Source of the DNA: Babesia bigemina
Taxonomy: Eukaryota
Assembly: GCF_000981445.1 (NCBI RefSeq)
Contig: NC_027218.1
Location: 2,418,001 to 2,482,000, forward strand
Direction: 5' to 3'
Length of the DNA: 64,000 bases
Shown: piece after piece, positions 39,455 to 39,937 of the stretch
Position numbering within the stretch: position 1 is the first letter of the stretch
Layout of the letters: the number at the start of each line of letters is the position of its first letter
Translations under genes and position numbers: made by a program
The notes under the pieces: model-generated
What the model was told of the DNA's origin: nothing
Databases searched by the model: none
The model's input: the letters and a program-made list of their open reading frames with translations, nothing else

Positions 39455-39937
39455 AACTCGCACTTGACGTTGCCGCGAGGCCGCACCCTACTTCCTGTAG
39501 GGTCGCCGCGGCCGGCGGTGAGGCTCAGTCGTATTCGTCAGGTGTGTCGGCCGCCCAGGCCCGCGCCTGCATAACCCTAAACCGCGGACCATCATCTATT
39601 GCCGTGCCCTCGGGTAGGCGTGCGCCATCCTAGGTGTGACCCCGGGGCGTCGGGTCCTCTGCCTGGCAGCGCTGAAGGCTCTAGTGTGTGTGTTCCGGAG
39701 TCGTTAGACACTGACCGGCGTCATCGCGAGCCCTCTGTCGCGTGTGAGCTGTGGCCCCAATGTGATTTCTGCCAAGTGCAGCCTGCGGCGTCTAAAGGTA
39801 TGAATGCGTACGGTCCTCTGTACGGCGGTTCGCCATGAGTTCGGCTCGGCCGCAGGTCACACCCGCCCACAACAAACTTGCCGGGCGTGCCTCACGCCAG
39901 GCACCGGTGCTCTACGACGACGGACACACGCTTTTTT
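39455..39937 (+). ncRNA. Candidate telomerase RNA (TER)
   Basis: Intergenic with no credible ORF. Template AACCCTAAACC at 39573-39583; boundary hairpin 39539-39569; closing helix 39460-66/39773-79; 3' multibranch domain 39781-39857; T6 at 39932-39937. Ends are estimated. Confidence 0.7.
39932..39937 (+). terminator. Possible Pol III terminator (T6) for the candidate TER
   Basis: First long T run downstream of the structured element. It could alternatively be part of the convergent FES1 3' region. Confidence 0.35.

Follow-up and report, generated by a model that had tools for sequence, protein, structure and literature searches.

A candidate telomerase RNA gene with a hairpin directly 5' of its template in Babesia bigemina

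Introduction

In telomerase RNAs, the template boundary is commonly of one type, a stem-loop on the 5' side closed at its base by a C-G pair, as described in the accounts cited here (PMC4229120, PMC5855555, PMC8643685). Leishmania is reported to have both the CUGUCA motif and this C-G pair, and T. brucei and Plasmodium to have the pair (PMC4229120, PMC5855555). Because of these reports in Leishmania and T. brucei, neither feature is specific to alveolates. Among the ciliates themselves, the heterotrichs are described as having no well-supported boundary stem, and the ciliate telomerase RNA model RF00025 also misses them (PMC8287931).

For the Apicomplexa, the only telomerase RNA in the literature that we searched is a 2.1-kb Plasmodium RNA obtained by computation, and according to a 2022 report, attempts to infer telomerase RNAs in this phylum were unsuccessful (PMC9841428). 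Our search, mainly of open-access literature, returned no paper that describes telomerase RNA in a piroplasm; an unnoticed genome annotation is possible. The telomere repeat of Theileria annulata is TTTTAGGG/TTTAGGG. The repeat TTTAGGG is likewise given for B. bovis and B. caballi (PMC10463595).

We analyzed a stretch of 64,000 nucleotides of the B. bigemina genome (contig NC_027218.1, positions 2,418,001 to 2,482,000, forward strand), hereafter the window, to which all coordinates refer. A preliminary description of this DNA had proposed a telomerase RNA with a ciliate-like template boundary element immediately 5' of its template.

Results

The Locus and Its Surroundings

The hairpin and the template lie in a spacer of ~960 bases between two minus-strand genes. 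The divergent neighbor is an ATM1-like ABC transporter gene (36800..39014, −; Pfam ABC_membrane and ABC_tran), of which the N-terminal 200 amino acids are 82% identical to the B. ovata protein. The tail-to-tail neighbor is an HspBP1/Fes1-like gene (39977..40994, −), with a weak Pfam Fes1 match below the cut-off, and is the orthologue of BBOV_III004880 (66% identical).

Rfam searches placed U2 (24663-24857, −), U4 (59885-60015, +), and U6 (42344-42449, −) snRNA genes within one 36-kb stretch that includes the candidate. At the locus itself, no match to any Rfam family, telomerase included, was obtained, and no box C, Sm site, or SRP motif was found in the candidate RNA. No tRNA genes were found in the window.

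Other genes with Pfam matches, between 12958 and 59078, encode CDT1-like, WD40, GTPase, PAN2-like UCH-domain, and MON1-like proteins, a kinase, Rcd1/CNOT9 (BBOV_III004860 in B. bovis), a tubulin, an FHA protein, and topoisomerase II. Local repeats at 5940-6530 and 21472-21560 consist of direct repeats of 24-40 nt, spaced by 285 and 493 nt, plus a 16-nt tandem array. Four of the window's 10 copies of ACCCTA fall in the spacer (39020-39976), which makes up 1.5% of the window.

A Stable Hairpin Directly 5' of a Telomere-Repeat Template

On the plus strand, CAGGTGTG (39539-46) pairs with CGCGCCTG (39562-69), including two G-U pairs, and GGCC/GGCC (39549-52/39558-61) closes a GCCCA loop beyond a 2-nt bulge (39547-48). 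The resulting putative template boundary hairpin (39539..39569, +) has 12 pairs and a 5-nt loop, with pair probabilities of 0.91-0.98 in the fold from 39527. A 3-nt spacer, CAT (39570..39572, +), separates it from AACCCTAAACC (39573..39583, +), an 11-nt template equal to 1.6 copies of the TTTAGGG complement. The preliminary description had given the hairpin coordinates, the two G-U pairs, the GGCC/GGCC extension, the loop, and the spacer correctly. The linker 5' of the boundary stem (39533..39538, +) is predicted to be unpaired, save for a weak additional pair, 39537-39570 (probability ~0.5).

The 53-nt stretch containing the hairpin folded at −20.2 kcal/mol (z −2.9), and two of 200 shuffles were equally good; the 101-nt stretch around it folded in an ordinary manner (z 0.15, 110/200 shuffles as good). 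The plus strand formed a more stable hairpin than the minus strand (−20.2 vs −12.7). Among 18,276 sampled 37-nt windows, 20 (0.11%) had an equally stable hairpin ending within 5 nt of an arbitrary point; among the 1,307 with a GC content of at least 70%, the figure was 18 (1.4%).

The template 11-mer is the sole perfect 11-nt match to any TTTAGGG rotation in the window, where 0.046 matches are expected by chance. The corresponding expectation is ~9 per 13-Mb genome, so that the template alone is weak evidence. The naked RNA, folded from 39527, leaves four of the template bases (39574-77) paired for the most part (unpaired probability 0.24-0.32), and freeing them would cost 1.8 kcal/mol; with other start points, the mean unpaired probability of the template was 0.68-0.94.

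A 15-nt near-copy (14/15) of 39573-39587, which covers the template and the four next bases, is present at 39084-39098. It lies 70 nt upstream of the first ATG of the ABC transporter gene and is complementary to the template on the mRNA strand. Since 23 such repeats within 1 kb occur across the window, this near-copy may be due to chance.

Conservation of Stem, Spacer Length, and Template in a B. bovis Orthologue

Two full-length B. bovis cDNAs, XBBk002017 (1,440 nt, 3 ESTs) and XBBk028166 (1,473 nt, 1 EST), match the locus; both are filed as 'hypothetical protein' in the supplement of a 2014 study, in which the library was made by oligo-capping and oligo-dT (PMC4148916). The listed reading frame is antisense to BBOV_III004880, indicating that the cDNAs derive from the syntenic place and that their strand corresponds to the plus strand here. 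The two 'hypothetical proteins' (Table S1B, rows 28 and 367) are thus antisense HspBP1-like frames and likely annotation artefacts. The cDNAs run antisense into the HspBP1-like gene. They differ from each other by 37 nt before the listed frame, which corresponds to 39972-40604 (+) of the window.

The comparison was made by eye over the first 400 nt of the cDNAs and covers two species. Both cDNA contigs share one start base, corresponding to 39527. Their nt 1-19 match 39527-45 at 13 of 19 positions with no gap (by eye), and the C at −1 and A at +1 of the start placed at 39527 resemble the B. bovis initiator.

The B. bovis hairpin (nt 13-41) is followed by an identical template (nt 45-55, 11/11). 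It has 11 pairs, and seven of the 12 pairs found here are unchanged, including the four basal ones. Both partners have changed at 39549-61 and 39551-59, where the register is fixed by the loop, and at a third pair, 39546-62, if one G is counted as bulged. Elsewhere, the U-G pair 39543-65 became C-G and the pair 39544-64 was lost. All five loop bases differ, and the spacer reads AAC in B. bovis and CAU here, keeping its length and not its sequence. In the linker, UCG (39535-37) is common to both species.

The template 11-mer is the longest unchanged stretch of an otherwise drifting core, and conservation ends at its two ends. The 10-mer ACCCTAAACC occurs in only these two of ~2,115 cDNAs, within the first 400 nt of each (PMC4148916). 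The preliminary call of a telomerase RNA is very likely right, since the orthologue keeps the stem, the 3-nt spacer, and the template. The stem, which B. bovis has not lost, very likely acts as the template boundary element, judging from these sequences. The CAG/CUG stem base, proposed as a feature to follow among piroplasms, is kept in B. bovis, the one orthologue compared.

Variation in Close Relatives

Part of the stretch is present in three of five sequencing runs of relatives. The DNA run X1 spans the whole hairpin, in which the sole change is the loss of the bulge base 39547, making the stem more stable (−22.5). A second DNA run, X3, showed no hairpin change. Run X5 did not cover the stretch, which says nothing either way. 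The RNA run X2 provided one contig across 39558-39876 with 20 differences, of which 16 were located and the other four may fall in the template. The library of X2 was unstranded and primed with oligo-dT, so that this contig could also be the 3' UTR of the neighboring gene. Evidence of a plus-strand transcript thus comprises the oriented B. bovis cDNAs with their four ESTs and, here, an unstranded contig of a relative.

The base directly after the template varies among the relatives. When 19 substitutions were compared with the predicted structure, nine fell at unpaired positions, seven kept a pair, and three broke one; the substitutions did not significantly spare the predicted structure (P 0.24-0.37 for X2, ~0.10 for X1).

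Extent and Predicted Fold of the Candidate RNA

The candidate telomerase RNA gene extends over ~410 nt (39527..39937, +), with the 5' end taken from the B. bovis orthologue and the 3' end guessed at a T6 run (39932..39937, +). This run directly follows the stem that closes the 3' domain and is the first run of at least four T after 39400. The B. bovis cDNAs continue for ~1 kb beyond the matching place, and these long cDNAs are likely untrimmed precursors. An H/ACA end was considered and rejected, since the ACA three bases 5' of the T run sits inside the closing stem.

A predicted core-closing helix, similar to ciliate stem I, joins 39527..39532 (+) to 39669-39673 through five pairs with one bulge. 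In B. bovis, nt 1-5 are perfectly paired with nt 142-146, and three of these pairs show two-sided changes in this register (by eye). The U-G pair at 39532 is C-G in runs X1 and X3. With the template free, the closing helix lies 3.2 kcal/mol above the minimum. The core overall folded no better than shuffles (z +1.1), and sliding 120-nt folds did not single out the locus.

A possible hairpin 3' of the template (39602..39618, +; 6 pairs) has a counterpart at the equivalent position of the B. bovis RNA (by eye) and is absent from the minimum-energy fold from 39527. A possible pseudoknot (39638..39664, +), one of several H-type candidates, would combine 39638-42/39652-56 with 39645-49/39660-64. Its first stem is kept at 5/5 pairs and its second at 4/5 in B. 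bovis (by eye), and a rival hairpin, 39649-55/39661-67, is kept at 5/7. Forcing the first pseudoknot stem lowered the stability from −56.5 to −49.7 kcal/mol, a value in which the knot is not counted; the loops are short, the last being only 3 nt. No convincing pseudoknot with a U-rich loop was found 3' of the template.

The 3' domain (39686..39931, +) is closed by a long stem and folded better than most shuffles (z −3.5, 1/200 shuffles as good), within bounds that were chosen after folding. By strand, the z values were −4.0 on the plus and −2.1 on the minus strand. The domain contains three blocks conserved in B. bovis: block 1 (39740..39756, +; 17/17 identical), block 2 (39784..39802, +; 18/19), and block 3 (39828..39854, +; 26/27). 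The distance from the template to block 1 is 156 nt in both species. The 3' half of block 1 pairs with 39848-55 (probability 0.95), and block 3 includes an 11-nt junction hairpin at 39837-47 (probability 0.82-0.93), which we take to resemble vertebrate P6.1. Between blocks 2 and 3, B. bovis has a hairpin of different sequence at the place of 39808-39823 (by eye). In run X2, one G-U pair of this hairpin is G-C and the innermost pair is broken.

Transcription

We infer that RNA polymerase II, not Pol III as in ciliates, makes the RNA, because of the oligo-capped/oligo-dT cloning, the C/A start, and the U5 runs inside the B. bovis RNA, one of which forms part of the loop of the boundary hairpin. 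Against Pol II stand the T6 run at 39932-37 and the lack of any internal T4 in this species. A Pol III promoter initiating at 39512-14 was rejected: 7% of control windows equalled its likeness to the region upstream of U6, and the B. bovis start corresponds to 39527. With the letters of X1 and X3, 2% of control windows equalled this likeness. A U2/U4-type promoter was also rejected, as 72% and 88% of controls scored equally. The U2 and U4 genes share an upstream element, ATGGGG plus TCACCCG, ~45-70 nt before the start, and U6 is without it.

An inverted repeat at 39480-39512 has arms that contain ACCCTA and its complement and folded well on both strands (z −4.5, bounds set by eye). It is probably promoter DNA, since it occupies −47 to −15 of the start placed at 39527. 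A hairpin at 39480-39512 as part of the RNA was rejected, because it precedes the mapped start.

Comparison with the Ciliate Boundary Motif

The preliminary description had likened the hairpin flanks to those of Tetrahymena stem II. Of the Tetrahymena sequence that it quoted, CUGUCA, the template CAACCCCAA, and the pentaloop agree with the published descriptions cited in this paper; a literature search for the flanks gave no relevant match, and the 5' flank is as given in the preliminary description. The flanks here scored high against the quoted ones: one of 3,527 overlapping control hairpins was as good (9 on the 5' side, 102 on the 3' side), so that the likeness is non-trivial if the quoted flanks are correct. 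The CAG/CUG base and the C-G pair at the bottom of the stem (39539-39569) are kept in B. bovis. The published CUGUCA motif itself is unmatched, being missed by one base here; CUG is followed by CAU in this species and by AAC in B. bovis, so that the 3' flank is not conserved.

The wider suggestion of a TERT-binding motif conserved across alveolates is supported only in part, by the CAG/CUG base common to the two Babesia species. It is weakened by the reports of the motif and the C-G pair in Leishmania, by heterotrichs with no clear stem, and by the ciliate model RF00025, which gave no match at the locus at E up to 10. Inheritance of the basal pairs from a shared ancestor is conceivable, if somewhat doubtful; for the whole boundary motif it is improbable. 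Our analysis suggests that the stem would work like helix II and that the RNA falls outside the ciliate family.

Pattern searches gave no further loci. A search of metagenomes for true ciliate loci, by motif plus template, produced 16 matches, none of which (0/16) had an Rfam match at E up to 0.5; all were judged to be chance, so such patterns arise easily. The pattern was matched nowhere in viral contigs. In bacterial genome contigs it was matched five times, four of these being one near-identical sequence, and none was alike beyond the pattern.

Discussion

We are confident that the RNA at this locus is a telomerase RNA, and on the sequence comparison the fuller reading, a telomerase RNA with the stem as its template boundary element, is probable. 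The layout would be ciliate-like: a short 5' closing helix, a linker, the boundary stem, and the template, within a core of ~147 nt. The four 3' bases of the template would anneal to the chromosome end, and TERT would copy the remaining seven to add one TTTAGGG unit. A stop is needed at the 5' edge of the template, because copying of the preceding base, which is U in this species and C in B. bovis, would put an incorrect letter into the repeat. Such a stop could arise if the RNA-binding domain of TERT gripped the base of the stem, so that the spacer lacked the slack to reach the active site. A second TERT-binding site would be provided by the conserved junction of the 3' domain, and the Pol II product would be a capped precursor, extending antisense into the neighboring gene before being trimmed.

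The most serious alternative accepts the telomerase RNA and assigns the hairpin a role only in TERT binding or folding, with the boundary set by the closing helix or by a pause at the template. Fajkus et al. raise this possibility for P1.1 of plants, and a boundary stem is described as missing from some telomerase RNAs; the unmatched ciliate motif and the free spacer sequence here would fit it. We consider it unlikely, as the two species share the four basal pairs and the length of the spacer while every loop base has changed, and the start of the closing helix is 46 nt away from the template, from which the hairpin separates it.

In a second alternative, the locus encodes some other structured non-coding RNA, in which the 11-mer serves another purpose, such as the binding of telomeric RNA or of a telomere-repeat protein. 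The failure to match Rfam telomerase families, the lack of a clear pseudoknot, and the ~9 such 11-mers expected per genome would all be compatible with this. The conservation of the 11-mer is sharply bounded and lies at a fixed distance from a conserved stem, and the RNA shows no box C/D, Sm, or SRP motifs, which makes this explanation quite improbable.

The weakest alternative, that these are DNA promoter elements of the ABC transporter gene or the 3' UTR of the HspBP1-like gene and that the B. bovis cDNAs are stray antisense products, could draw on the enrichment of ACCCTA in the spacer, on TGTGT/ACACA as known Babesia promoter words, on the unstranded oligo-dT contig X2, and on the caution of the cDNA authors that some novel cDNAs may be artefacts (PMC4148916), and is very improbable given G-U pairs and two-sided changes that indicate a plus-strand RNA helix, the start base shared by both cDNAs, and a hairpin 400-525 nt from either gene, against median B. 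bovis UTRs of 152 nt (5') and 116 nt (3'). A telo-box promoter was also considered and rejected, as the main text of two piroplasm promoter papers gives no CCCTA or TAGGG motif.

Returning to a telomerase RNA with a boundary stem, the comparison bears on the age of the different parts of the boundary element: the helix with its basal CAG/CUG appears to be kept, as does the length of the spacer, and the ciliate single-stranded motif is not. More tentatively, the piroplasm RNA may be a mosaic, which we put forward as a doubtful proposal. It would join a ciliate-type core in the first 150 bases to a CR4/5-type P6.1 junction like that of animals and fungi, with Pol II producing a capped and polyadenylated precursor on the strand opposite to a chaperone co-factor gene. 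If true, an alveolate would possess a P6.1 junction, which would point to an ancestral feature since lost by ciliates, plants, and trypanosomes; such a mosaic would also explain the failure of Pol III promoter searches in Apicomplexa.

An RNA of ~410 nt with a mapped 5' end in the culturable B. bovis could make it possible to reconstitute an apicomplexan telomerase in compact form for the first time. The candidate could also serve as a model for finding telomerase RNA in Theileria, Toxoplasma, and Cryptosporidium, and could help locate the working domains within the long Plasmodium RNA. As the deletion of TERT did not succeed in P. berghei, the RNA is a possible drug target.

Among known telomerase RNAs, that of Tetrahymena shares with the candidate a stem-loop directly 5' of the template (helix II), with a 5-nt loop, a basal C-G pair, and CUG at the 3' base, in the descriptions cited (PMC5855555, PMC4229120, PMC8643685). 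In both, the template lies at most 50 nt from the 5' end and is accompanied by a short closing helix, which is predicted here. Unlike the Tetrahymena RNA, the candidate is without CUGUCA, has a free spacer sequence, and has a stem of 11-12 pairs rather than ~8. It is also longer (~410 vs 159 nt), is likely a product of Pol II rather than Pol III, and gives no match to the ciliate model.

The Plasmodium telomerase RNA, PF3D7_0918500, comes from the same phylum and has the template ACCCUGAACCC in the same register (PMC4183507, PMC5550746). A basal G-C pair is reported for its boundary helix (PMC4229120); the comparison with the candidate covers the template and this pair. The Plasmodium RNA, identified by computation, is 2,148 nt, about five times longer than the candidate.

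The Trypanosoma and Leishmania RNAs are Pol II products, as we propose here, and have a long, wobble-paired boundary stem, which in their case binds TERT at its base (PMC8643685, PMC4229120). Like the candidate, they have no proven pseudoknot in the cited accounts. Unlike it, they are described as trans-spliced, box C/D RNAs of ~1-2 kb and are stated to be without P6.1, whereas no box C was found here.

The candidate differs from the vertebrate RNAs in having no Rfam match and no visible H/ACA layout, and in a boundary formed by a local stem rather than by the closing helix. The likeness of its junction hairpin to P6.1 in sequence is one that we presume. In position, the candidate resembles vertebrate CR4/5, having a conserved small hairpin beside the 3' strand of a junction-closing helix, downstream of the core (PMC5855555).
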